DNA from: Longivirga aurantiaca
GTDB lineage: Bacteria > Actinomycetota > Actinomycetes > S36-B12 > CAIYMF01
Assembly (NCBI RefSeq): GCF_042660085.1
Contig: NZ_JBHSTI010000038.1
Coordinates: 1 to 9,991 of the forward strand
Direction: 5' to 3'
Length of the DNA: 9,991 bases
Positions 1 to 9,991 of the stretch are shown here, piece after piece; the first letter of the stretch is position 1; each line of letters begins with the position of its first letter. The position numbers were made by a program, and so were the translations under genes. A model generated the notes under the pieces. The model had not been told where the DNA came from. It made no database searches and saw only the letters and a list, made by a program, of their open reading frames with translations.

Positions 1-503
1 GATGGCTCGACATTCGTCGTCGGCGTGCACCGATCTCCCTGCCAGGCCCCGTCGTCGCTGCGGTTGCCCGCTGCGTCGCCGTCGGAGGTTGCCCTCCGCT
101 GGACCCGGTGGTCGTGCTCGGTGCTGTCGAGGTGTGAAAGAGCCGGCACGTCGGTGCTGCGGTTGCCCGCGTCATCGGCGACGGGTTGCCCCGCTGCCTG
201 CTTCGCCTTCCTCGACTGCCTCCCACTCCGGCCGGCCCGTCGTCGCCCTGGTCTCCCAGGCCGTCGCCGTCGGAGTTGCCTCCGGTGGCCCGCCCTCGTG
301 CTCGGCGTCCGCGTCGCTCCTCGCCGGGCCGCTCGGTCGGCTGGTCTCCCAGCCGTCCGCCGTCCGGAGTCTCCTCCGGCTGGCCCGCCGTCTCGCTCGG
401 CGTGCGCATCGCTCCTCGCCGGGCCGCTCGGTCGGCTGGTCTCCCAGCCGTCCGCCGTCCGGAGTCTCCTCCGGCTGGCCCGCCGTCTCGCTCTGCGGTG
501 GCG
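1..503 (-). repeat. Tandem array of five ~90-97-bp units, each with two short hairpin palindromes whose 4-nt centres read GAGA or GCAA on the minus strand
   Basis: Hand alignment. 314-398 and 409-493 are identical over 85 bp (period 95). Units further left are diverged and carry indels. Palindromes (plus coordinates): 57-74, 83-98, 159-170, 182-193, 247-260, 271-284, 339-354, 364-379, 434-449, 459-474. Hairpin pairs are ~23-25 bp apart centre to centre, and unit spacing is 90-97 bp. Two of the three minus-strand frames have no stop from 508 down to 1, so coding cannot be excluded. Confidence 0.8.
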
Positions 504-656
504 TAGTTCTATTCCTGTTTCGGCAAGCGGCACAAGGGGTTTCAGCGAAGTTTTCTGACGAGTTTCTGTGCCCACAAGATGTGCACAGGGTTGGCGCTGT
601 TCATGCACCGGATGTCCCCATGTTGTCCCCACCTTCATGCACAGGCTGAGAACTAC
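503..656. other. Low-GC island with clustered short direct and inverted repeats; candidate divergent promoter or leader region between the array and the PEBP gene
   Basis: Visibly AT-richer than its flanks. Bounded by the 8-bp inverted repeat GTAGTTCT (503-510) / AGAACTAC (649-656). Contains TTCATGCAC(C/A)GG at 600-611 and 634-645, TGTCCCCA at 613-620 and 624-631, GTGCACAGG at 581-589, and GTTTC-type pentamers at 517-521, 539-543, 551-555 and 562-566. Confidence 0.5.
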
Positions 657-873
657 CGGTGCCCCCGACCCCCTTCCGTCTGTTTGCGATGAAGGGCTGG
701 GCCCCCGCCGGGCGACGATGGGCGAAGCCCTCGTGCGGTAGGGGACTTCGTTGCCAAGAGCGCAAGAAAGTGGACCTTCATCGGTAGCGAGGGGCTGCGT
801 CGGCGGCGTGCGCGCGGCAGGATCGGCGACGTCGACGTCAGCGCTGACGCCGTACCCGGAGAGAGGCGGTCCC

Positions 874-1407
874 ATGGGTCTCGAGCGCCCCGTCATGGTC
901 AACCCGTACGACTACCTGCCGCCGGTGGCGTCGTTCACCGTGACCAGCACCGACGTGGTCGACGGCGAGCAGGTCGACCTCGCCTTCGTGCACGACTCGG
1001 CCGGCGGGTCGAACGTGTCGCCGCAGCTCGCGTGGTCGGGCTTCCCCGACGGCACGCAGAGCTTCGTCGTGACGTGCTTCGACCCGGACGCGCCGATCCC
1101 GTCCGGCTTCTGGCACTGGACCGTGGTCGACGTGCCGCTGGCGGTGACGTCGTTCGACCAGGGCGCCGGGGCGTCCGACGCGACGCTGCCCGGCGGGTTC
1201 CACGTGCGGACGGACTTCGGCTCGGCGTCGTACGGCGGCTGCGCCCCTCCGCCCGGCGACCACCCGCACCGGTACTTCTTCGTCGTGCACGCGGTCGACG
1301 TGCCCAGCCTCGGGGTCGACGCCTCGGTGTCGCCGGCCGTGGTCGGCTTCAACCTGGCCTTCCACACCCTCGGCCGCGCGATCATCGCGCCGACCTACCG
1401 CCACTGA
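874..1407 (+). CDS. YbhB/YbcL family phosphatidylethanolamine-binding (Raf kinase inhibitor-like) protein
   Basis: ORF 751..1407. PEBP hallmarks are present: CFDPDAPIPSGFWHW and GDHPHRYFFVVHAVD. I chose ATG at 874 because GGAGAGAGG (858-866) lies 7 nt upstream; ATG at 895 is an alternative. The stop is TGA at 1405-1407. Confidence 0.9.
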   Translation: MGLERPVMVNPYDYLPPVASFTVTSTDVVDGEQVDLAFVHDSAGGSNVSPQLAWSGFPDGTQSFVVTCFDPDAPIPSGFWHWTVVDVPLAVTSFDQGAGASDATLPGGFHVRTDFGSASYGGCAPPPGDHPHRYFFVVHAVDVPSLGVDASVSPAVVGFNLAFHTLGRAIIAPTYRH

Positions 1408-1422
1408 CGGGCCCCCCGCCGA

Positions 1423-1498
1423 CCGCACGTTCGGGCCCTGTGGGTCGATCACGGGGGTTCAACTGCCTCCGATGACCCCTGCTCGTGATCTTGGTGGC
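1423..1498. repeat. Intergenic repeat family A, copy 1 (fills the gap between the convergent PEBP and zinc-ribbon genes)
   Basis: Ungapped hand alignment to 5075-5150 in the same orientation gives 62/76 identical positions. Conserved blocks are TGGGTCGATCA, ACTGCCTCCG, TGACCC and CTCGTGATCTTG. Confidence 0.8.
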
Positions 1499-1500
1499 CC

Positions 1501-1659
1501 TCAGCCGGTGGCGCGGGTGTCGGTCCAGCCGGGGCCGCAGAGGTCGCCGCCGTCGCAGCACGGCTGCAGGTAGAAGCAGACCGGGCACTGGTCCTTGCCG
1601 CCCTTGCGCACGAGGTCGGCGCGCTCGCACTGGGGGCACTGGCCGGGGCTCTGGAACAT
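1501..1659 (-). CDS. Cysteine-rich zinc-ribbon microprotein (52 aa), function unknown
   Basis: Sequence MFQSPGQCPQCERADLVRKGGKDQCPVCFYLQPCCDGGDLCGPGWTDTRATG. It has a CxxC-x14-CxxC knuckle pair plus three more Cys. All 52 sense codons end in G or C, a strong coding signal in this genome. The upstream in-frame extension to GTG at 1722 has poorer third-position GC. There is no clear SD. TACGCT lies 7 nt upstream of the ATG, so the transcript may be leaderless. Confidence 0.75.
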   Translation of the reverse strand: MFQSPGQCPQCERADLVRKGGKDQCPVCFYLQPCCDGGDLCGPGWTDTRATG

Positions 1660-1749
1660 GCGGGCGAGCGTACGAGCGATAGCCCGGCGTCCGGCGACGA
1701 CACACCACGAGGCCGCACGCACGACCCCAGCGGGACCTCTCGGCGTACG

Positions 1750-1811
1750 CGAGTTACTGCCCAGATGGTCGTTGAAGCAGGCTCTTCAGCGACCATCTGG
1801 GCAGTAACTCG
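1750..1811. repeat. Intergenic long-hairpin repeat family B, copy 1 (22-bp perfect stem)
   Basis: CGAGTTACTGCCCAGATGGTCG (1750-1771) is the exact reverse complement of 1790-1811. The 18-nt loop has a further 5-bp TGAAG/CTTCA stem. The outer 13 bp (GAGTTACTGCCCA) are shared with 7026-7084. The element lies 22 nt after the oxidoreductase stop codon. Confidence 0.85.
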
Positions 1812-1833
1812 AGGAACTCGGGGTGCGGCGTGG

Positions 1834-2832
1834 TCAGTCGAGGCCGGGGTAGGTGAGGCCGATCTGGCGCCGGACCTCGTCGAGGGTCTCCATGATCGAG
1901 ACGGTCTCGTCGAGCGGCAGGCGGGGCGACTCGGTCAGCCCGGCGCGCAGGCACCGGCCGACCTCGGCCGCCTGGTAGCGCAGGCCGTGGCCCGGCTCGT
2001 CGAACGAGTGCACCTCGGGCTCGCCGTCCTCGCGCCCGACGCGCGGGATCACGCGGAACGAGCCGGGGCGGTAGAAGACGCCGTCGATCTCGATGCGTCC
2101 CTCGCGGCCGACGATGACCGCGTGGCACTCGCTCTGGCCGCGCAGGGTCGTCGTGAGCACCGCGTGGGCGCCGCCGTCGAACTGCAGGATCATCGAGGTC
2201 TGGCCGTCGACCCCGGTGAATGCCGCGTCGCTCGCCGCGGTGATCGCGCGCGGCGTGCCGAGCAGCATGTGGGCGTACGACACCGGGTAGATGCCGAGGT
2301 CGAGCAGCGCGCCGCCGCCGAGCTCGGGGGCGAACAGGCGGAACTCGGGGTCGTCGGCGAACCACTGGCCGTGCTCCGCAGTGACGAGGACGATGTCGCC
2401 GATGCGGCCCGACTCGACGATCTCGCGGATCGCGAGCGTGCGCGGCAGGTGCCGCGTCCACATGGCCTCCATGAGGAACGTGCCGCGCGCGCGGGCCGCC
2501 TCCACGAGCGAGCGCGCCTCGGCGGCGTTCATCGTGAACGGCTTCTCGACCAGCACGGCCTTGCCCGCCTCGATCGCGAGCAGCGCGGCGTCGTGGTGGC
2601 CGGGGTGCGGCGTCGCGACGTAGACCGCGTCGACGTCGGGGTCCGCCGCCAGCGCGGCGTACGACGGATGCCGGTGCGCGACGCCGTGCTCGTCGCCGAA
2701 CCGGTCGGCGCTCTCCTGGCTGCGCGAGCCGACGGCGACGACCTCGGCGTCACCGAGCAGCGCGAGATCGCGCACGAAGGCCGCGGCGATACCGCCGGTG
2801 CCGATGACTCCCCAACGGATGGTGTCGCTCAT
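1834..2832 (-). CDS. Gfo/Idh/MocA family NAD(P)-dependent oxidoreductase
   Basis: ORF 1834..2865. It has the N-terminal Rossmann motif IRWGVIGTGGIA and the family EKP motif (LVEKPF). I chose ATG at 2832 (MSDTIRWGVIG). It lies 63 nt downstream of the alpha-galactosidase stop on the same strand, so the two are probably co-transcribed. Confidence 0.9.
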   Translation of the reverse strand: MSDTIRWGVIGTGGIAAAFVRDLALLGDAEVVAVGSRSQESADRFGDEHGVAHRHPSYAALAADPDVDAVYVATPHPGHHDAALLAIEAGKAVLVEKPFTMNAAEARSLVEAARARGTFLMEAMWTRHLPRTLAIREIVESGRIGDIVLVTAEHGQWFADDPEFRLFAPELGGGALLDLGIYPVSYAHMLLGTPRAITAASDAAFTGVDGQTSMILQFDGGAHAVLTTTLRGQSECHAVIVGREGRIEIDGVFYRPGSFRVIPRVGREDGEPEVHSFDEPGHGLRYQAAEVGRCLRAGLTESPRLPLDETVSIMETLDEVRRQIGLTYPGLD

Positions 2833-2895
2833 GCCGCCATCCAACCGTGCCGCCGCTCGTCGCACACGCCGTCGCGGTCTCGGGGTGAGGAGCCG

Positions 2896-5016
2896 CTACA
2901 GGGCGGTGGCGTGGATGAGGGTGGCCTGCTCGGGCACGTGCACGCCCATGGGCAGGCCCACCTCGGCCAGGACGTCGCCCGCCACCTCGATCGGGGCGTC
3001 GTACCACGACGGGTGGTGCCGCTGCATGTCCCAGTTCGCACCCGGCAGGAGCACCCGCTCCACGCGGTAGCGGCGGGCGGGGTCGAGGCCCACCAGCCGC
3101 GCGGGCACCGGCACCGTCAGGGCGGACGCGGTGAGCTGCGCATAGGCGAACAGAGCCTCGGAGCCGTCACGGGCGACCACCCCGTGCACCAGCGCGCTCG
3201 GGTCGGCGTGGTCCACCCGCACGACGCGACCGGTGTGCAGCAGCGATCGGAACCGCTTGTGCACCTCGATCACCTGCGCCACACCGGCTCGGTCCTCGTC
3301 GCTCGCGGCCGAGAGGTTCCACTCGAAACCCAGGTGCCCGAAGAGCGCCGTGGCGGCGCGGAACGGGAGGGTCTGCGTGCGCGCGGTGGTGTGCGACCAC
3401 GCGCCGCCGACGTGCGCGCCCATGAGCTCGGGCGGCAGCAGGTAGGAGAACCCGCGCTGGATGGTCTGGCGCTCGAGCGCGTCGTTGCAGTCCGAGGTCC
3501 AGAAGCGGTCCGTCCGAGCGGCGATCCCGAGGTCGATCCGCCCGCCTCCGGCCGAGCACGACTCGATCTCGAGCCCGGGGTGACGCCGCTTCAGCTCGTC
3601 GAGCAGCGCGTACAGCGCCAGCGTCTGACGGCGTACGCCGGCCACGCCGCCGCGGTGGGCGGCCGCGACGAGCTCGCGGTTGTGGTCCCACTTCAGGTAC
3701 GTGATCGGGTGCTCGGCGAGCAGCGCGTCGAGCCGCTCGAGCAGGTAGTCGAAGGCCTCGGTGCGGCCGAGGTCGAGCACGAGCTGGTTGCGGCCGAGGA
3801 GCGGCTCGTAGCCGTCGACGTGCAGCACCCAGTCGGGGTGGGCGCGGTAGAGGTCGCTGTTGGGGTTGACCATCTCGGGCTCGACCCACAGGCCGAACTC
3901 GAGCCCGAGCCCGACGACGTGGTCGGCCAGCTCGCCCAGGCCGCGGGGGTACTTGCGCGTGTCGACGTACCAGTGGCCCAGCGACGACGTGTCGTCGTCG
4001 CGCTCGCCGAACCAGCCGTCGTCGAGCACGAACCTCTCGACGCCCACTGCGGCGGCGTCGTCGGCGAGGCGTTGCAGCGCGGCCACGTCGTGGTTGAAGT
4101 AGACGGCCTCCCACGTGTTGAGCAGCACCGGTCGCGGAGCCTTCGGGTGGGACGGACGTGCGCGGACGTGGTCGTGGAACTGCTGGCTCGCGGTGGTGAG
4201 GCCCGACCCCGACCACGTGCCGAGCACCGTGGGCGCCTCGTACGTCTCGCCGGGCTCCAGCATGCCCTCGCCCGGCAGGAGGAGGTCGGACGCCGACAGC
4301 ACGCGGCGACCGTCGGGCAGGGTCTCGACGACGAGCCGGTGGTTGCCGCTCCACGCGAGGTGCGCGAGCCAGACCTCGCCCCTCTGCTCGGAGAAGGCGG
4401 GGGTGCCGATCCCGATCGTGGGCCACGACTCGTGCGACGTGCGCCCGCGGCGGCTCTCACGGACGAGCGCGTACGGGCCGAGGGCGTGGCGAGCGCTGTG
4501 CATCTCGTGCGCCCAGCGGCCGGTCAGCGTCATCGCCTCGGACGCACGTGCGGGGAGGGGGATCGTGGGCGCGAGCGAGTCGAGCGTGTAGCGGTCGACG
4601 CCGTCGTTCGTGAGCGACGACGCCACCGACAGCACGCCGTGCTCGTCGAGCGCGACCACGAGCGTGACCGAGATGCCCGCTATCGCGTCCGCCCCTGTCC
4701 AGGTGAGCGACGCCGGATCGGCGGCCGACGACGTACGGCGCAGCAGCGGTGCCCAGGCGGTGCCGTCGGGCCGGTGGCCGCTGATCCCGCCGTACGCCGC
4801 CCAGCCGCGCACATGCTCGGGCAGGAGGGACAACGGCGTGACCGTGTCGAGGCCGCCGTTGGGGATCGAGGCGTCGAGGAGGGCCTCGATCGCGGCGGGC
4901 TCGACCGCGCCGTCGCCCAGGCGCCGCCCCCAGTGCAGGACGCGCGGGACGTCGTCGTCGTGCGTCAGCAGGACGGTCGTGGTCGCCGAGTGCAGGGCGT
5001 GGAAGCGCGATGTCAC
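2896..5016 (-). CDS. Glycoside hydrolase family 36 alpha-galactosidase
   Basis: ORF 2896..5052, about 700 aa. GH36 signatures are present: YLKWDHNR (nucleophile region) and ESCSAGGGRID (acid/base region). The N-terminus RFHALHSATTTVLLTHDD...LHWG is typical of the family. I chose GTG at 5016; GTG at 5034 or 5052 is possible. Confidence 0.93.
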   Translation of the reverse strand: MTSRFHALHSATTTVLLTHDDDVPRVLHWGRRLGDGAVEPAAIEALLDASIPNGGLDTVTPLSLLPEHVRGWAAYGGISGHRPDGTAWAPLLRRTSSAADPASLTWTGADAIAGISVTLVVALDEHGVLSVASSLTNDGVDRYTLDSLAPTIPLPARASEAMTLTGRWAHEMHSARHALGPYALVRESRRGRTSHESWPTIGIGTPAFSEQRGEVWLAHLAWSGNHRLVVETLPDGRRVLSASDLLLPGEGMLEPGETYEAPTVLGTWSGSGLTTASQQFHDHVRARPSHPKAPRPVLLNTWEAVYFNHDVAALQRLADDAAAVGVERFVLDDGWFGERDDDTSSLGHWYVDTRKYPRGLGELADHVVGLGLEFGLWVEPEMVNPNSDLYRAHPDWVLHVDGYEPLLGRNQLVLDLGRTEAFDYLLERLDALLAEHPITYLKWDHNRELVAAAHRGGVAGVRRQTLALYALLDELKRRHPGLEIESCSAGGGRIDLGIAARTDRFWTSDCNDALERQTIQRGFSYLLPPELMGAHVGGAWSHTTARTQTLPFRAATALFGHLGFEWNLSAASDEDRAGVAQVIEVHKRFRSLLHTGRVVRVDHADPSALVHGVVARDGSEALFAYAQLTASALTVPVPARLVGLDPARRYRVERVLLPGANWDMQRHHPSWYDAPIEVAGDVLAEVGLPMGVHVPEQATLIHATAL

Positions 5017-5074
5017 GACGCAACCCTGCCGCACCTGCCCGGCCCACCGCACACGGACCTCGGCTCGCGCCGCG

Positions 5075-5150
5075 CTGCACCTTCTGGCCCCTTGGGTCGA
5101 TCAACGCAGTTCGACTGCCTCCGTTGACCCGTACTCGTGATCTTGATGGC
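5075..5150. repeat. Intergenic repeat family A, copy 2 (59 nt upstream of the alpha-galactosidase start, downstream of the pirin terminator hairpin)
   Basis: Matches 1423-1498 at 62/76 positions in the same orientation. The flanking CTCAG (5161-5165 versus 1500-1504) suggests that a longer element with a 6-nt indel is possible. Confidence 0.8.
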
Positions 5151-5177
5151 GTACGCCGGCCTCAGGGCGCCCGCATG

Positions 5178-5218
5178 CCGGTGCCCCCGGCCGCGGCGTA
5201 CGCGATCGGGGGCACCGG
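5178..5218 (-). terminator. GC-rich hairpin 7 nt after the pirin stop codon (candidate intrinsic terminator without a U-tract)
   Basis: CCGGTGCCCCCG (5178-5189) is the exact reverse complement of CGGGGGCACCGG (5207-5218), with a 17-nt loop. No T/U run follows on the minus strand. Confidence 0.5.
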
Positions 5219-5224
5219 GAGGGG

Positions 5225-6199
5225 TCAGGCGCGGAAGGGCTGGATGCCGTCCGGCGGGACGGTGCCGAGGCGGCCGGCCTGGAAGTCCTCGAAGGCCTGC
5301 ACGAGCTCGCGCTGGGTGTTCATGACGAACGGGCCGTGCCACGCGATCGGCTGGCGGATCGGCTCGCCGCCGAGGATCACGACGTCGAGGCCGCCGAGAC
5401 GGCTCTCCTGCGTCGGGTCGGCGTTCACCGTGAGGGTCGCGCCGGGGCCGAAGACCGCGAGCTGGCCGGTCGTGATCGGGCGCTTCTCCTCGCCGACCGT
5501 GCCGGTGCCGGAGAGCACGTACACGAGCGCGTTGAAGTCCTGGCGCCACGGGATCGTCATCTGCGCGCCGCTGGAGATCGAGGCGTGCACCATCGCCATC
5601 GGCGTGTGGGTCGAGCCGGGGCCGGTGTGGCCGCCGACGTCGCCGGCGATGACGCGCAGCAGCGCGCCGCCGTCGTCGCTCGAGAGCAGCAGCACCTCGC
5701 TGGCGCGGAGGTCCTGGTACTTCGGCGCGCTCATCTTGGCCTCGCGCGGGAGGTTGACCCAGAGCTGCAGGCCGTGGAACAGGCCGCCGCTCATGACGAG
5801 CGACTCGGGCGGGGTCTCGATGTGCAGCAGGCCGGAACCCGCGGTCATCCACTGCGTGTCGCCGTTGGTGATCGAGCCTCCGCCGCCGTGCGAGTCCTGG
5901 TGGATGAACGAGCCGTCCATGATGTAGGTGACGGTCTCGAAGCCGCGGTGCGGGTGCCACGGGGTGCCCTTGGGCTCGCCCGGCGCGTACTCCACCTCGC
6001 CCATCTGATCCATCATGATGAACGGGTCGAGCACCTCGGCCGCGACTCCGGCGAACGCGCGACGGACGGGGAAGCCCTCGCCCTCGAAGCCGGTCGGTGC
6101 CGTGGTGATGCTGCGGACGGGTCGTGCCGGCGCGAGGCCCGGGTCGGGGCGCCGCACGCGCGGCAGCACGGTGATGTCGTCGACGGTGACGGCGGGCAT
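5225..6199 (-). CDS. Pirin family bicupin protein (quercetin 2,3-dioxygenase-like)
   Basis: ORF 5225..6265. It has the N-terminal cupin metal-binding motif WHPHRGFETVTY and two cupin halves. I chose ATG at 6199 because GGAGG (complement of 6206-6210) lies 6 nt upstream. Confidence 0.92.
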   Translation of the reverse strand: MPAVTVDDITVLPRVRRPDPGLAPARPVRSITTAPTGFEGEGFPVRRAFAGVAAEVLDPFIMMDQMGEVEYAPGEPKGTPWHPHRGFETVTYIMDGSFIHQDSHGGGGSITNGDTQWMTAGSGLLHIETPPESLVMSGGLFHGLQLWVNLPREAKMSAPKYQDLRASEVLLLSSDDGGALLRVIAGDVGGHTGPGSTHTPMAMVHASISSGAQMTIPWRQDFNALVYVLSGTGTVGEEKRPITTGQLAVFGPGATLTVNADPTQESRLGGLDVVILGGEPIRQPIAWHGPFVMNTQRELVQAFEDFQAGRLGTVPPDGIQPFRA

Positions 6200-6250
6200 C
6201 GCAGACCTCCAGCAGGCCGGGTTCCGGTCGCGCACCGGGCGGCGCGCATC

Positions 6251-6268
6251 TAGTTCAATGCTCAACTA
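6251..6268. promoter_or_regulatory. Imperfect palindrome TAGTTCAATGCTCAACTA in the pirin upstream region (candidate operator)
   Basis: 6 of 7 arm positions are complementary. It sits in an AT-richer stretch 52-69 nt upstream of the pirin ATG. Confidence 0.3.
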
Positions 6269-6366
6269 TCAGCACATGTTCCCGATCGCGCAAGTCGATC
6301 ACGCCGTGCCCCGCGCCGCCGAGCCTTCGCCGTACGTCGTGATGGCCAGAATTGTTCGGCTCTATG

Positions 6367-6387
6367 GGATGAAGGTCGCCTTCATCC
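6367..6387. promoter_or_regulatory. Perfect 9-bp-arm palindrome GGATGAAGG-TCG-CCTTCATCC (candidate operator or hairpin)
   Basis: Exact inverted repeat read directly from the sequence. The same core GATGAAGG/CCTTCATC recurs at 6409-6417, 687-695 and 775-783. Confidence 0.4.
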
Positions 6388-6420
6388 ACTAGAGCCGGAC
6401 GAATGGTCCCTTCATCGCGA

Positions 6421-6456
6421 ACGGCCGCCCGGGACCGTGGGGTCCGGGGCGGCCGT
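6421..6456 (-). terminator. Very stable GC hairpin 23 nt after the OsmC stop codon (candidate terminator without a U-tract)
   Basis: ACGGCCGCCCGGGACC (6421-6436) pairs with GGTCCGGGGCGGCCGT (6441-6456) at 15 of 16 positions. The loop is GTGG. Confidence 0.55.
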
Positions 6457-6478
6457 CGTGCGGTGCTGGGGTGCGGGA

Positions 6479-6922
6479 TCAGGCGTCGAGCAGGGTGGCC
6501 TCGACGCTGATGTCCTCGACGCCGGCGAGGGCGCGGCTGATGATGCAGCCGGCCTTGGCGGTCGCCGCGGCCTCGGCGAAGCGTGCCTGGTCAACGCCCG
6601 GGACGACGCCGTCCACCGAGATCACGATCTTCGTGATGGCCTGCTGGCCCGCGGCGTTCTTGTCGAGGGTCACCTCGGCGCTCGCGGCCAGCGAGGTCGG
6701 CGGCGTGCCGGCCTTGGACAGCTCGTTCGACAGCGACATCGCGAAGCACGCGGAGTGGGCGGCGGCTACGAGCTCCTCGGGGCTCGTCTGGCCCTCGGGC
6801 TCGCCGGCGCGGCGCGGGAAGGTCACGGGGAACTGGCCGGCGTCGCTGGAGTCGAGCGACACGACGCCGTTGCCGGTCATCAGGTCACCGGTCCACGAGG
6901 TGGATGCGTCACGAACGGGCAC
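6479..6922 (-). CDS. osmC: OsmC family peroxiredoxin (organic hydroperoxide reductase-like)
   Basis: ORF 6479..7039. Both conserved Cys contexts are present (AAHSACFAMSL and KAGCIISRAL). I chose GTG at 6922, giving MPVRDASTSWTGDL (a typical OsmC N-terminus, 147 aa), with GGAG 5 nt upstream. Confidence 0.88.
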   Translation of the reverse strand: MPVRDASTSWTGDLMTGNGVVSLDSSDAGQFPVTFPRRAGEPEGQTSPEELVAAAHSACFAMSLSNELSKAGTPPTSLAASAEVTLDKNAAGQQAITKIVISVDGVVPGVDQARFAEAAATAKAGCIISRALAGVEDISVEATLLDA

Positions 6923-6969
6923 AGGTGCTCCAAGGGTCAGGGGTACGGGGGAGGACGTACGACTGAGGT

Positions 6970-6995
6970 AACCCTTCCTCAGCCGCCGTTGTTCC
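6970..6995 (-). promoter_or_regulatory. Candidate ECF sigma (SigH/SigR-type) promoter GGAAC-N18-GTT upstream of osmC
   Basis: The minus strand reads GGAAC (complement of 6991-6995), then 18 nt, then GTT (complement of 6970-6972). This is about 48 nt upstream of the osmC start. It matches the GGAA(T/C)-N17-18-GTT pattern known for the thiol-oxidative-stress ECF sigma factors of actinobacteria. Confidence 0.35.
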
Positions 6996-7024
6996 GCGAA
7001 CGCGCTGCGCACCGACCGACTCTC

Positions 7025-7085
7025 CGAGTTACTGCCCACAAGGCCCTATGGAGCGCTCCATAGCGACCTTGTGGGCAGTAACTCG
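7025..7085. repeat. Intergenic long-hairpin repeat family B, copy 2 (19-bp outer stem plus nested perfect 18-nt palindrome)
   Basis: CGAGTTACTGCCCACAAGG (7025-7043) is the exact reverse complement of 7067-7085. The inner CTATGGAGCGCTCCATAG (7046-7063) is a perfect palindrome. The element lies 26 nt after the stop of the upstream gene. Confidence 0.85.
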
Positions 7086-7111
7086 CGGAGGGGACGGACG
7101 GCGCGGATGGG

Positions 7112-8083
7112 TCAGGACGCGGTGAGGCGGTGGATGTCGCCGTGCACCTCGAGGCCGGCGCAGTGGCCGGTGTCCTCGAGCAGCACACGGCCGTCGGCGT
7201 CGGTGAGCCGCACCTGCACGGTGGCGTCGAGCGTCTCCTCGACCCGCCGGTGCATCTCGGTGCGGATCGGCGCGTGCAGCAGGCCGCCGCGCGGGCGGTC
7301 GGCCGTGATGTCGAGCGTGGCGCCGCGGCGCGAGCGCAGCGTCCAGCGCACCTCGTCGTCGTCGACCTCGATGCGCGTCGTCTTCGCGCCGTTGTACGTC
7401 GTGAACTTGTGCAGCACGCCGCTGTGCTTGAGGCCGACGATGTGGCCGGGGAACTCCGAGCGCAGCCACGGGATCACCGCGATCGAGCCGGTGAGGCACG
7501 TGCCCGGGTCGCTGAAGTGGTTGGTCTGCAGCCACACGTACCCCGCCGGGAAGGCCGCGCCCCAGTCCTTCTCGAGATAGCCGCGGCCGCCGTCGAAGGA
7601 CGACGTCGTGCCCGCGTGCGTCAGCGAGCCCTGCAGGTCGTGGCCGAACGACACCACGCCGTGCTTGCACTCCATCTTCGGCACCCACGCGTACCAGCCC
7701 ATGACGCCGGGCGAGAGCAGCGAGACCGGCCACGGGTCGAGCGGCGTCGTGAACCGCACCTCGCCCTGCAGCGATGGCAGGTCGAGCACCACGCCGCGGT
7801 CGGAGAAGCGGTTCGGCCCGACGCGCACCGAGAAGCGGTCGGCCTCGGCGCCGAACTCCGACACGTCGTACTGGTGGTACCAGCTCTCGCCGGTGGCGCC
7901 GTCCAGCACCTGCACGAACGCCTCGCCCGAGCCGTCGGGCGCGAGGAAGACGCCGGGGATCACGGCGAACCGTGCACCCCGGTCGGCCGCGACGAGCTTG
8001 ACGTACCAGCCCTCGAAGTAGGAGGAGCGCACGCTCTGCCCGTGGAAACCTTCGGGGTGCAGGACCCCGGTCGCGAGACCCAT
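7112..8083 (-). CDS. Tocopherol cyclase-like family protein
   Basis: ORF 7112..8167. It has the family-typical N-terminal HPEGFHG...SYFEGWYVKL and, further in, LEKDWGAAFPAGYVWLQ. I chose ATG at 8083 (MGLATGVLHPEGFHG); ATG at 8161 or GTG at 8167 cannot be excluded. Confidence 0.75.
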   Translation of the reverse strand: MGLATGVLHPEGFHGQSVRSSYFEGWYVKLVAADRGARFAVIPGVFLAPDGSGEAFVQVLDGATGESWYHQYDVSEFGAEADRFSVRVGPNRFSDRGVVLDLPSLQGEVRFTTPLDPWPVSLLSPGVMGWYAWVPKMECKHGVVSFGHDLQGSLTHAGTTSSFDGGRGYLEKDWGAAFPAGYVWLQTNHFSDPGTCLTGSIAVIPWLRSEFPGHIVGLKHSGVLHKFTTYNGAKTTRIEVDDDEVRWTLRSRRGATLDITADRPRGGLLHAPIRTEMHRRVEETLDATVQVRLTDADGRVLLEDTGHCAGLEVHGDIHRLTAS

Positions 8084-8365
8084 GCGTCGGACGCTACCTC
8101 GCGCCGCCAGCCGGCAGGGCGGATGCGGCCGCACGGTCGAGGCGGGTGCGGGCGTGGTCATCGCCACACGGGTCGGAGGGAACCCGCACGTCGCAGGCTC
8201 TCGGGCTTCCGCCGACGCCCGCTGACCGGTTGCAGAGCGTGAGCGTGCGGCAGTCGTCGTGTGATACTCCCGGAGGCGGTTCGCTCGGCGGCCGCACCCG
8301 TGAGCCGGTTTCGTCCGGAGAGCCAGTGCCCGGCCCAGCGCCGGAGGACAGGGGCGACGTACGCC

Positions 8366-9991
8366 ATGAAGACCCGCACCAGCACGCGCCTTCCGCGCAC
8401 CGCGACCTTCGTCGCCGCGGCGGCCCTCGCCGTCGGCACGCTGCCCGCGCTCGCCGCGAGCGCATCAGCCGCAACCGTCGAGGCCGACCCGACGAACTTC
8501 CCCCGCTTCGGCTACATCACGTACGACGGCGGCGCCCACGACGCGACGACCGACAAGCTGTGGGTGACCGACGGCAGCACCTGGGGCCCGGGCACCCTGC
8601 TGACCCCCAACTCGTACGCCTACTCGTACGACGTCTCCCACGACGGCGAGGTGCTCGCAGTCTCCGGCCAGTCGCGCGCGCTCACCGTGCCGGCGCTGAA
8701 CACGACGTACGGCCTGCTCGTCGTCGACAAGAACGGCCCCGACCCCGATGTGACCACCAACGTCACGACGATCGTCGAGTCGAACCCGGTCGTCTCGCCC
8801 CTCGGCGACTTCGTCTACTGGGTCGACTCCGGCGCGATCTGGCGGTACGTCGTCGACACGGGCGTGACCACCAAGGTCTCCACCAACTTCGCGCCCAAGG
8901 CCGGCGAGGTCGTCGGCCGGCTCGCGATCTCCGACAACGGTGCCGCGGCCGCCGTGGTGTTCACCGTCAACTCCTCCTCCGGCGCGCTCATCTCGAGCCG
9001 CATCCGCGCCGGCCGCCTCGACGGCGTCGGCACCGAGAAGGAGTACTCGCAGAGCGTCGCCTCGGGCCTCAGCTATCCCGTCGGCTCGACCCTGGTGTTC
9101 ACCTCCGACACCGAGGTGGCGTTCAACGTGTGGCGCAGCGGGAACCTGACGAGCACGTGGTCGATCTCCGGCATCGGCGCCACCGCCGTGGCCGACACCT
9201 CGATCGGCCTCGGCGCGGTCTACGACCTCAGCACCGACGGCACGAGCTGGTACTCGTTCCAGGACATCGTCAGCGGCACGCAGGTGGCCAAGACCGTGAG
9301 CCCCTACGACACCGGCGTGTTCGAGGACTTCCCGCGCGGTTCCGGCACCGTGCGCTACGTGCCCGCGACGACCCAGCCGGGCGTGGCTGCTCCGACCGTC
9401 GACGCCGTGGTCAACCGCGCGTCCGCGACGTCGTACCTCTTCCTCGCCAAGAGCGCGGTGCCCACCGGCACGAAGGTGATGTACGCGAGCCTCGCGGCCT
9501 ACCTCGAGGACGCGACCGGCACGCGCGGCGCGGACGTGAAGGCGCAGACCCGCTACGGCCAGCTGAAGTCGTCGGTCAACGGCGGCGCGACGTTCACGAC
9601 CACGGCCACCACCGGTGCCGGGTCGAGGCTGCTCACCTGGCCGACCGGCGCACCGTTCGGCAACGGCTACACCGCGGCTCTCACGCGCAACACCTGGTTC
9701 CAGTGGTGCTTCCAGGGCGACGCCTACGTGGCCGCCGACTGCTCGATCACCAAGAAGGTCACGGTGAACCCGACCGTCTCGGTGGGCGTGCAGACCTCGG
9801 GCAGCACCAAGCGCGTGTACGGCAAGGCTGCACGCACCGGCGGCACCGCGGTGCTCTACCGCTACGTGAACGGCTCCTGGGTCGTCGTGACGACGGCTGC
9901 GGTGTCGAGCACCGGCACGTTCAGCTTCGGCTTCCGCACGCTGCCGCGCGGCAGCTACAAGGCCACCACCAAGGCCGACACCTACTGGGGC
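8366..9991 (+). CDS. Secreted protein with a TolB/PD40-like beta-propeller region and C-terminal beta-sandwich (Ig-like) modules; 3' end beyond the window
   Basis: It is not in the supplied ORF track because no stop codon falls inside the window. Hand translation from ATG 8366 gives 542 uninterrupted codons with very high third-position GC. The N-terminus MKTRTSTRLPRTATFVAAAALAVGTLPALAASASA is a Sec-type signal peptide. Propeller-blade-like repeats include YDVSHDGEVLAVSG, DFVYWVDSGAIWRY and GRLAISDNGAAAAVVF. The C-terminal module is KRVYGKAARTGGTAVLYRYVNGSWVVVTTAAVSSTGTFSF. Confidence 0.8.
   Translation, partial: MKTRTSTRLPRTATFVAAAALAVGTLPALAASASAATVEADPTNFPRFGYITYDGGAHDATTDKLWVTDGSTWGPGTLLTPNSYAYSYDVSHDGEVLAVSGQSRALTVPALNTTYGLLVVDKNGPDPDVTTNVTTIVESNPVVSPLGDFVYWVDSGAIWRYVVDTGVTTKVSTNFAPKAGEVVGRLAISDNGAAAAVVFTVNSSSGALISSRIRAGRLDGVGTEKEYSQSVASGLSYPVGSTLVFTSDTEVAFNVWRSGNLTSTWSISGIGATAVADTSIGLGAVYDLSTDGTSWYSFQDIVSGTQVAKTVSPYDTGVFEDFPRGSGTVRYVPATTQPGVAAPTVDAVVNRASATSYLFLAKSAVPTGTKVMYASLAAYLEDATGTRGADVKAQTRYGQLKSSVNGGATFTTTATTGAGSRLLTWPTGAPFGNGYTAALTRNTWFQWCFQGDAYVAADCSITKKVTVNPTVSVGVQTSGSTKRVYGKAARTGGTAVLYRYVNGSWVVVTTAAVSSTGTFSFGFRTLPRGSYKATTKADTYWG

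Follow-up and report, generated by a model that had tools for sequence, protein, structure and literature searches.

A modular, tetraloop-capped hairpin array in Longivirga aurantiaca as a candidate for an apparently undescribed actinobacterial non-coding RNA class

What is encoded by half a kilobase of DNA that consists almost entirely of small hairpins? This question is raised by the left end of contig NZ_JBHSTI010000038.1 from the actinobacterium Longivirga aurantiaca, of which a stretch of 9,991 nt (positions 1 to 9,991, the window hereafter) was analyzed. Its first 500 nt carry a tandem array of hairpins, separated from a divergent PEBP gene by a low-GC island. We conclude that a structured RNA element very likely resides on the minus strand of this region and is likely to be an independent non-coding RNA gene. 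On balance, window positions 1 to about 500 probably make up the first two-thirds, from the 5′ end, of a highly structured non-coding RNA gene that stands alone and measures about 0.78 kb; its product most plausibly serves as a multivalent decoy or scaffold. This mechanism, taken by itself, is a reasonable but tentative proposal drawn from analogy. The element is structured, conserved, modular and variable in copy number; its stems covary and it evolves as non-coding DNA. It apparently represents an undescribed, conserved actinobacterial class of non-coding RNA.

The original prediction, made from the letters of the window, placed ten hairpins with exclusively GNRA loops on the minus strand. 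All ten are present where they had been located, and their loops are GAGA in five cases and GCAA in the other five. Reading of window positions 1-720 resolved them into five pairs with stems of 4-7 bp each:

459-474, minus strand: first hairpin of module I, CCGGAG-GAGA-CTCCGG
433-450, minus strand: second hairpin of module I, CGGCTGG-GAGA-CCAGCCG
364-379 and 338-355, minus strand: hairpins of module II, the same pair as in module I, 95 nt away
271-284, minus strand: first hairpin of module III, CGGAG-GCAA-CTCCG
247-260, minus strand: second hairpin of module III, CCTGG-GAGA-CCAGG
181-194, minus strand: first hairpin of module IV, GCGGG-GCAA-CCCGT
159-170, minus strand: second hairpin of module IV, GCGG-GCAA-CCGC
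83-98, minus strand: first hairpin of module V, CGGAGG-GCAA-CCTCCG
60-71, minus strand: second hairpin of module V, GCGG-GCAA-CCGC

Such a density of capped hairpins far exceeds that of randomized sequence. On the minus strand of positions 1-511, 15 hairpins combine a 4-nt loop with at least 4 bp of stem, ten of them GNRA-capped, versus 5.8 ± 2.5 hairpins and 0.36 ± 0.6 GNRA-capped hairpins (maximum 3) in 2,000 dinucleotide shuffles of the same 511 nt. The plus strand of the array has no GNRA-capped hairpin at all. The predicted fold of the minus strand reaches -272 kcal/mol (z = -6.9), compared with z = -4.6 for the plus strand. Tandem Repeats Finder detected a 95-nt period across positions 248-497 (2.7 copies, 92% matches), and units I and II are 95% identical. 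The GC content is 0.77-0.78 in the array and 0.57 in positions 501-700, so that the adjacent low-GC island described originally is real, and the RNA strand is composed of 41% G, 21% A and only 5% U.

The array does not end at base 1 of the contig. An exact-protein look-up of PEBP retrieved only a 5.2-kb contig that ends 126 nt upstream of the PEBP gene, and the leftward extension was therefore made virtually from relatives 93-94% identical. With PEBP as anchor, a scan limited to one genome per species yielded 80 loci, five of which (L002-L005 and L008, metagenome-assembled genomes labelled Actinomycetes, Actinomycetota or Candidatus Nanopelagicales) hold DNA homologous to window positions 1-650. 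Scanning metagenome contigs with the 21-nt core of the 3′ hairpin of the element added 49 loci, for a total of 54. The carriers span GC contents of 57-74% and include uncultured lineages labelled Candidatus Nanopelagicales, recovered from many environmental metagenomes. The closest relatives of the window RNA are L089 (93.9% identity), L128 (93.6%) and L082 (93.2%). In these three, the array continues to the left with two more modules, a long GNRA hairpin and a terminal hairpin (about 265 nt). The full element is thus about 776 nt by comparison with relatives, the window holding the first ~500 nt, and its length varies between 130 and 880 nt across lineages. The terminal hairpin, GGGGCCCCUCGAU-CUCAUAC-AUCGAGGGGCCCC, has 13-15 bp and lies at L003:8645-8690 and equivalent positions, about 265 nt left of the window edge; its 21-nt core is identical in the 54 loci across the whole GC range. 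Read in the RNA direction, the order of the parts is repeated boxes, promoter-like motif, one to eight modules and 3′ hairpin in 32 of the 54 loci with strict patterns and in 46 of the 54 with relaxed ones.

Some observations concern the 3′ hairpin and its surroundings. L108 and L112 carry the terminal hairpin some 90 nt past an amidase-like gene, with neither array nor boxes upstream of it, and the gene that comes next is the purine-permease-like one also found after the full element in L109. Outside the window, the terminal hairpin is immediately followed by a conserved yATTGTGCC motif (L002-L130), and GCGACACG(C/G)C lies roughly 40-110 nt beyond it. The two motifs could either still belong to the RNA or serve the downstream genes as -10 element and leader.

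The repeated unit can be defined as a module. Its layout comprises a conserved box (ACGCCGAGNNCGAC-GGCGGGCC), hairpin 1, a CGGCGG linker and hairpin 2, and its consensus reads ACGCCGAGCACGAC-GGCGGGCCA-NN-CGGAG-GNRA-CUCCG-(A)CGGCGG-N5-stem-GG-GNRA-CC-stem. From 25 units a covariance model was derived and run against 1.19 Mb of sequence, namely the carriers and 45 element-less PEBP loci. It recovered modules in the relatives, always inside the element: hits with E < 0.01 all fall within elements and in sense orientation, and the first one elsewhere has E = 0.018. In the window, the hits lie at 432-498, 337-403, 245-308, 155-218 and 57-124, all on the minus strand and spaced by 95, 95, 90 and 94 nt, and delimit the following features:

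404-498, minus strand: module I (model hit 432-498, 67.1 bits, E = 1.3e-12), with box CCGCAGAGCGAGACGGCGGGCCA and linker ACGGCGGA
477-482 with 420-425, minus strand: closing helix of module I, in a predicted Y-shaped fold
309-403, minus strand: module II, a duplicate of module I, 95% identical (model hit 337-403, 68.2 bits)
382-387 with 325-330, minus strand: closing helix of module II
219-308, minus strand: module III (model hit 245-308, 62.8 bits), its second stem extended to 245-262
125-218, minus strand: module IV (model hit 155-218, 26.6 bits, E = 0.003), with linker CGCCGATGAC
29-124, minus strand: module V (model hit 57-124, 45.2 bits), its second stem extending to 57-74
within 29-124, minus strand: closing helix of module V, CCGGGUCC / GGGGCCUGG
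1-28, minus strand: start of module VI, with box hairpin CGAC-GAAT-GTCG at 8-19, truncated by the window edge

The start of module VI aligns to L089, L082 and L128. Module IV is the weakest and most diverged of the window modules, and it is also the one in which the proposed conserved linker ACGGCG(G)AC, found in units I, II, III and V, is replaced by the sequence given above. The number of modules varies widely among elements: five in the window, where the element is cut by the edge, seven in L089, L082 and L003, eight in L128, L004 and L102, three in the ~450-nt class and L096, and one in L105, L129, L090, L099 and L100. The 95-nt unit itself is present once in L002, twice in the window, L089, L082 and L003, and three times in L128 (361-1231). 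Unit number varies by whole 95-nt units, and this minisatellite-like polymorphism separates relatives that are 82-94% identical.

Stem sequences had been described as different between units and yet complementary, and compensatory changes bear this out. Ten sequences from the window's clade, aligned by sequence alone (A2), were folded with RNAalifold, which predicted 210 pairs, 20 of them with compensatory double changes, and 98.0% of the alignment cells are paired. Both-side changes affect 20 pairs (58 cells), versus 0-4 pairs (0-6 cells) when the partners are slid by 1-3 columns, and none of 500 column shuffles reached the observed covariation values. At orthologous columns, hairpin 2 of module III reads CUGG/CCAG, GCGG/CCGC or CCGG/CCGG, and five pairs of helix 17 are changed on both sides. 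In the module alignments, one pair of hairpin 2 appears as G-C 16 times, C-G 12 times, U-G twice and U-A once, and a pair of hairpin 1 as A-U 17 times, G-C nine times and G-U three times. The same pattern holds across the 77 distinct two-hairpin units from all lineages, in which the hairpin 1 stem is conserved as YCGGAG/CUCCGR with A-U to G-C exchanges and the hairpin 2 stem is nearly free to vary, yet its top is always GG-GNRA-CC. Base pairs supported by covariation are what a generic stand-alone structured non-coding RNA gene is expected to have.

A three-way junction closing the two hairpins of a unit (477-482 with 420-425) had also been suggested. This pairing appears in both the minimum-free-energy and the consensus folds, but covariation is absent there, the helix being invariant in modules I and II (GGGCC/GGCCC). 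One pair of the closing helix of module V does covary (U-A, C-G and U-G at columns 628/684), and direct inspection of L099 reveals GUACC/GGUAC at the equivalent position. A Y-shaped three-way junction closing each module is thus a plausible, moderately supported model.

The interchange of loop sequences provides further evidence for selection on RNA. Among the 77 units the loops switch between GAGA, GAAA, GCAA, GCGA and GUGA, and some hairpins of the ~450-nt relatives (L005:91-548 and L008:5396-5855) carry UUCG or CUCG loops instead. A 349-nt version in L092 (3909-4257), L104 and L107 has no GNRA loops, only YNCG-type ones, but has kept the box cluster and the 3′ hairpin, which indicates that the body of the element evolves much faster than its two ends. 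GNRA and UNCG are the two classic families of stable RNA tetraloops and constitute RNA-specific stability motifs. Loops of both families are confined to the strand that corresponds to the window's minus strand. The RNA strand was assigned to the minus strand mainly on this tetraloop identity, together with the orientation of the promoter-like motif and the consensus energy (-285 kcal/mol for sense versus -251 kcal/mol for antisense), because the strand-symmetric wobble test was not decisive. Two simpler measures were dropped as strand evidence: per-strand counting of G-U pairs, which is confounded by composition since the antisense strand has more G-U potential, and the comparison of G-U with A-C on the sense-predicted structure (69 versus 9), which is circular.

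Could the array instead encode a repetitive protein? An Asp/Gly-rich, calcium-binding-like or disordered secreted protein on the minus strand has some superficial appeal. Two sense frames are stop-free across the whole 776 nt in L089, local stretches read SDGDGLGDQGDDG or TSDGDAAGNRSDDG with high third-position GC, and GAGA, GCAA and GCGA loops are readable as Gly-Asp or Gly-Asn codons. Stop-free frames are, however, expected in an RNA strand with so little U, and the remaining evidence effectively refutes the coding reading, to which we assign a negligible likelihood. The window differs from L089 by a 1-nt indel, and other pairs of relatives by runs of 1, 2, 3, 9, 98 and 101 nt; L128 has one extra 95-nt unit and L002 one fewer than the window. 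None of the three phases is favored by substitutions in the array (37/37/38 against L003, 42/50/50 against L004), in contrast to the PEBP control at similar divergence (17/14/46 and 21/22/55, respectively). The synonymous share of changed codons is about 25% in each of the three sense frames versus 50-66% in the true PEBP frame. Within a unit, the two loops lie 18 to 32 nt apart and their distance keeps no constant remainder on division by 3, and the GC frame plot displays local signals that change frame, in agreement with the shifting best frame reported originally. Pfam searches at E ≤ 1 found no family for the three minus-strand frames or for a 215-aa plus-strand open reading frame (ORF), and the suggested resemblance to thrombospondin-type-3-like repeats is accordingly unsupported. 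That ORF starts with ATG and spans window positions 2-649, and long stop-free frames exist on both strands. The central inference of the original prediction, that selection acts on minus-strand nucleic-acid structure and not on a peptide, held on every test.

The low-GC island next to the array, originally compared with a leader, fits the description of a promoter region that carries phased DnaA-box-like repeats better than that of a CRISPR-style leader. It is the most conserved part in the alignment of five genome loci and contains these features:

568-643, minus strand: six direct DnaA-box-like repeats, TG(T/G)G(G/C)A(C/T)(A/G)(A/T), identified by sequence reading
643-635, 631-623 and 620-612, minus strand: boxes 1 to 3, TGTGCATGA, TGGGGACAA and TGGGGACAT
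609-601, 587-579 and 576-568, minus strand: boxes 4 to 6, GGTGCATGA, TGTGCACAT and TGTGGGCAC
536-567, minus strand: A-rich spacer, AGAAAC..AGAAAAC..GAAAC, the lowest-GC part of the island, conserved in position and A-tracts among relatives
505-535, minus strand: promoter-like motif with -35 TTGTGC (535-530), an 18-nt spacer, -10-like TAGAAC (511-506) and an invariant T (505)
496-500, minus strand: predicted transcription start, about A499, placed by its distance to the -10-like hexamer, the RNA running leftwards

The boxes are helically phased, with start-to-start spacings of 12, 11, 11, 22 and 11 nt. TTGTCCACA is the DnaA-box consensus of high-GC Gram-positive bacteria; with at most two mismatches it matches 15 times in the window, five of these within the 64 nt of positions 568-631. 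In each lineage that was examined the same layout recurs, with a phased box cluster preceding the element, and the repeats come closer to the canonical DnaA box in the lower-GC carriers. They are near-perfect in L092 (TTGTCCAC and TCATCCACA) and read TGTGGATGA or TGTGGATAG in L090 and L099. The repeats are thus DnaA-box-like, and they may bind DnaA. The A-rich spacer might have a UP-element-like role. The motif CTTGTGC-N18-TAGAACT or a close variant (TAAAACT or TAAAAAT) is found in 32 of the 54 hairpin-bearing loci with the strict pattern and in 46 with the relaxed one, and the distance from the -10-like element to the 3′ hairpin ranges from 132 to 878 nt in the 32 strict-pattern loci. The putative roles of this motif and of the 3′ hairpin are assigned on conservation and position. 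Separately, a terminator scan noted a weak hairpin with a T-rich tail on the plus strand at 493-506, overlapping the minus-strand -10-like element, which is probably a chance match (one site versus 0.4 expected).

Taken at face value, these features outline a mechanism. Transcription would proceed from the TTGTGC-N18-TAGAAC(T) motif, starting near base 499 and running leftwards, and the transcript would end outside the window at the strong conserved hairpin, at or just after GGGGCCCCUCGAUCUCAUACAUCGAGGGGCCCC. The RNA would be very stable because it contains 5% U and is almost entirely paired. It would act in trans as a multivalent decoy or scaffold presenting the same module one to eight times, its valency shifting by duplication and loss of the 95-nt unit, and its expression may be coupled to DnaA and hence to the replication or growth state. 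In its most specific form, i.e., an undescribed actinobacterial regulatory RNA with a DnaA-controlled promoter and one to eight Y-shaped modules that titrate or scaffold a factor, forming a replication- or growth-coupled sponge with valency tuned by unit duplication, the proposal is speculative and we regard it as rather doubtful.

The element has no significant match to an RNA family in Rfam, in agreement with the original remark that it resembled no recognised class. Rfam returned no hit at gathering score in the whole window, none at E ≤ 10 in positions 1-900 and, with the same cut-off, nothing significant in eight homologous loci. ARAGORN found no tRNA or transfer-messenger RNA, and a full-text literature search for the hairpin sequence as DNA and RNA, complemented by a keyword search, gave no description of such an RNA. 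The 3′ domain of L093 (1691-1780), composed of the long GNRA hairpin and the terminal hairpin, matches sodF_sRNA in Rfam below threshold (34 bits against a gathering score of 46, E = 0.026). This was not taken as homology, since few residues match outside the two stems; it probably reflects a shared hairpin-plus-terminator shape.

The best functional analogy is offered by sponge RNAs of the CsrB/RsmZ type. Like CsrB, CsrC and RsmX/Y/Z, the element would be stand-alone, with regulator repeats upstream of its promoter, a variable number of repeated hairpins and a terminal hairpin, and the Csr/Rsm sponges work by multivalent sequestration. The likeness does not extend to the details. Csr/Rsm loops carry A(N)GGA, whereas those of the element are GNRA or UNCG in the ten window hairpins and the 77 units; the Csr/Rsm repeat is a single short hairpin instead of a ~95-nt two-hairpin module with a conserved 25-nt box. 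Neither the gathering-score search of the window nor the E ≤ 10 search of positions 1-900 produced an Rfam hit to CsrB, CsrC or RsmX/Y/Z, and to our knowledge CsrA is not typical of Actinomycetota. A sponge for ribosomes through anti-Shine-Dalgarno pairing was discarded, given that GGAG, GGAGG and GAGG are not enriched over dinucleotide shuffles.

Other known classes share part of this profile. OLE, GOLLD, ROOL, HEARO and raiA RNAs also span several hundred nucleotides with many covarying helices and frequent GNRA loops, and were likewise found by comparative genomics with their function unknown at discovery. Their architecture is unique, non-repetitive and of roughly fixed size, unlike a tandem array of one to eight copies, and none of them gave an Rfam match. 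Mycobacterial interspersed repetitive unit-variable number tandem repeat (MIRU-VNTR) minisatellites, repetitive extragenic palindromes (REP) and bacterial interspersed mosaic elements (BIME) resemble the array in being intergenic tandem units of 40-100 bp with copy-number differences and hairpin potential. The element differs in occupying a single syntenic locus, with no module elsewhere at E < 0.01 in the 1.19 Mb of flanking and control loci, and in its old, diverged units with compensatory changes, framed by a promoter-like motif and a 3′ hairpin in lineages of 57-74% GC. ANTAR targets, known in actinobacteria, also consist of two adjacent short hairpins joined by a short linker, but they overlap terminators or start sites of regulated mRNAs, whereas here the pairs are capped by tetraloops and arrayed in a stand-alone RNA. 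ANTAR targets have hexaloops with conserved A1 and G4 (see also bioRxiv 10.1101/660928), and 4-nt GNRA or UNCG loops led us to reject this assignment. A CRISPR array, in which near-identical short repeats alternate with unique spacers, was rejected as well, because the ~95-nt modules are contiguous and diverging and no cas gene is present among the window ORFs scanned with Pfam or the two genes annotated on the matching Logan contig.

Several observations weigh against an independent RNA gene of this kind. Transcription, the 5′ and 3′ ends, control by DnaA and the existence of a binding partner are features that we infer from sequence. A strict scan for sigma-70 promoters of the E. coli type calls nothing in the sense orientation, the promoter-like motif being missed because position 6 of its -10 element is C and not the usual T. 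Nor does the strict scan for intrinsic terminators call any site in this orientation; no U-run adjoins the 3′ hairpin. The invariance of this hairpin is partly by construction, as it served as the search pattern. The closing helix never varies in modules I and II and pairs in 71% of cells of a mixed alignment of 32 paralogue modules, which has register problems. The strand-symmetric test of G-U versus A-C gave no preference for the sense strand. No gene is consistently linked to the element across lineages, and no candidate partner protein or target was identified.

Three alternatives deserve to be weighed against this background. The array could be a cis-acting 5′ leader of downstream same-strand genes, encoding a PemK-like toxin, a small CxxC protein or an F420H2-dependent reductase, with the terminal hairpin as attenuator or terminator. 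It fits such a leader that one of these genes always lies on the same strand, 130-250 nt past the hairpin, both within the window's clade and among syntenic relatives, and read-through is conceivable at a hairpin without a canonical U-tail. Nonetheless, clade members do not share one first downstream gene, which encodes the CxxC protein, the PemK-like toxin or the F420 reductase, and in the distant L090, L099, L105 and L116 the next gene is unrelated and convergent. Unrelated flanking genes and an often convergent downstream gene are general among distant carriers, which favors a stand-alone RNA gene over a leader. No alternative antiterminator pairing was seen, and we know of no precedent for a leader made of one to eight repeated modules; a leader is thus an unlikely explanation. 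The element might also act as DNA, combining a cluster of DnaA boxes with a neighboring hairpin or VNTR-like repeat tract, any transcription being incidental. It could, for instance, titrate DnaA, be prone to cruciforms or R-loops, or represent a secondary or vestigial origin. The phased DnaA-box-like repeats in all lineages, the minisatellite-like variation in 95-bp copy number and a G- and purine-rich RNA that favors R-loops speak for it, as do the indecisive wobble test and the fact that GNRA-type loops are stable in single-stranded DNA too. On the other hand, GNRA and UNCG loops all fall on one strand, and UUCG and CUCG have no special stability as DNA; the promoter-like motif is correctly oriented before the array and a strong hairpin follows it; and neither a titration site nor an R-loop requires stem covariation. 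Nor are dnaA, dnaN or other replication genes nearby, and blastn against PLSDB plasmids and a search of IMG/VR viral contigs with the 3′ hairpin yielded no match. A role purely at the DNA level consequently appears quite improbable.

Equally improbable is a functional analogue of 6S or Ms1 RNA that binds RNA polymerase in lineages where Ms1 is not found. Ms1 (RF02566), too, is a structured actinobacterial RNA that stands alone, ends in a terminal hairpin and is not linked to a protein gene, and both 6S and Ms1 have a conserved housekeeping-type promoter, comparable to the strongly conserved primary-sigma-like motif described here. A synteny survey did not detect Ms1 in Frankiales, Geodermatophilales and Glycomycetales (PMC9130861). 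For Ms1, the only Rfam signal came from L005; at 11.2 bits (E = 2.1) it falls far short of the gathering score of 162, and it did not recur in L008 or the six other loci; there was no 6S hit. Blastn at word size 7 against Streptomyces coelicolor Ms1 (scr3559, supplement of PMC9130861) gave a 12-nt word as its best match (E = 0.56), and no similarity to mycobacterial or Streptomyces Ms1 was apparent. Furthermore, the element is predicted to fold as an array of Y-shaped modules instead of a rod with a central bubble, and its length varies six-fold (130-880 nt), unlike that of Ms1. Oxidoreductases are present among the neighbors examined; the HAD-IB hydrolase/SerB-like gene that accompanies them in Ms1 synteny was not seen there. 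Identity with Ms1 was rejected after the comparison with the S. coelicolor sequence. The 12-nt match concerns the module junction word ACGGGCCAGCCG, which corresponds to S. coelicolor Ms1 positions 109-120 at chance level (E 0.56-2) and occurs at positions 30-40 and 125-135 of the window RNA (window ~472-482 and ~377-387) and in L105 and L129.

If the element is transcribed as predicted, it would constitute a structured RNA family new in Actinomycetota, a phylum for which we know of few trans-acting RNAs and of neither a general RNA chaperone nor a sponge system. Elements with one, three, seven and eight modules form a natural series, and since copy number changes even between relatives 93-94% identical, the influence of valency would be open to direct testing. 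The conserved DnaA-box-like cluster before the RNA gene suggests a link between replication initiation and riboregulation, of which our literature search found no published description. The locus is also an annotation trap, since 5% U leaves frames free of stops and gene callers are liable to call spurious Arg/Gly/Asp-rich proteins.

The PEBP gene occupies positions 874-1407 on the plus strand, divergent from the array. To its right, genes for a GFO/IDH/MocA oxidoreductase (1834-2865) and a GH36 alpha-galactosidase (2896-5052), both annotated on the matching Logan contig, are on the minus strand, and Pfam identified further window genes for pirin, OsmC-like and tocopherol-cyclase-like proteins. 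The gene order in the window's clade is divergent PEBP, the RNA, an optional PemK-like gene, a 133-aa CxxC protein and a protein of the F420H2-dependent quinone-reductase family. The ~133-aa CxxC protein (VGVYRAEGSLRGE...HCxLCDITHSP), which has no Pfam or NCBIfam match, is encoded on the same strand after the RNA in L003 (8127-8528, minus strand), L002, L004, L008, L082 and L102, and a PemK/MazF-like toxin gene is inserted between the two in other carriers. Within the window, a 1120-aa ATG ORF at 1765-5127 on the plus strand is a shadow ORF antisense to the GFO/IDH/MocA and GH36 genes. A probable secreted-protein gene (MKTRTSTRLPRTATFVAAAALAVGTLPALAASASA...), with a third-position GC of 0.95-1.0, runs from about 8365 to 9991 on the plus strand and off the right edge.

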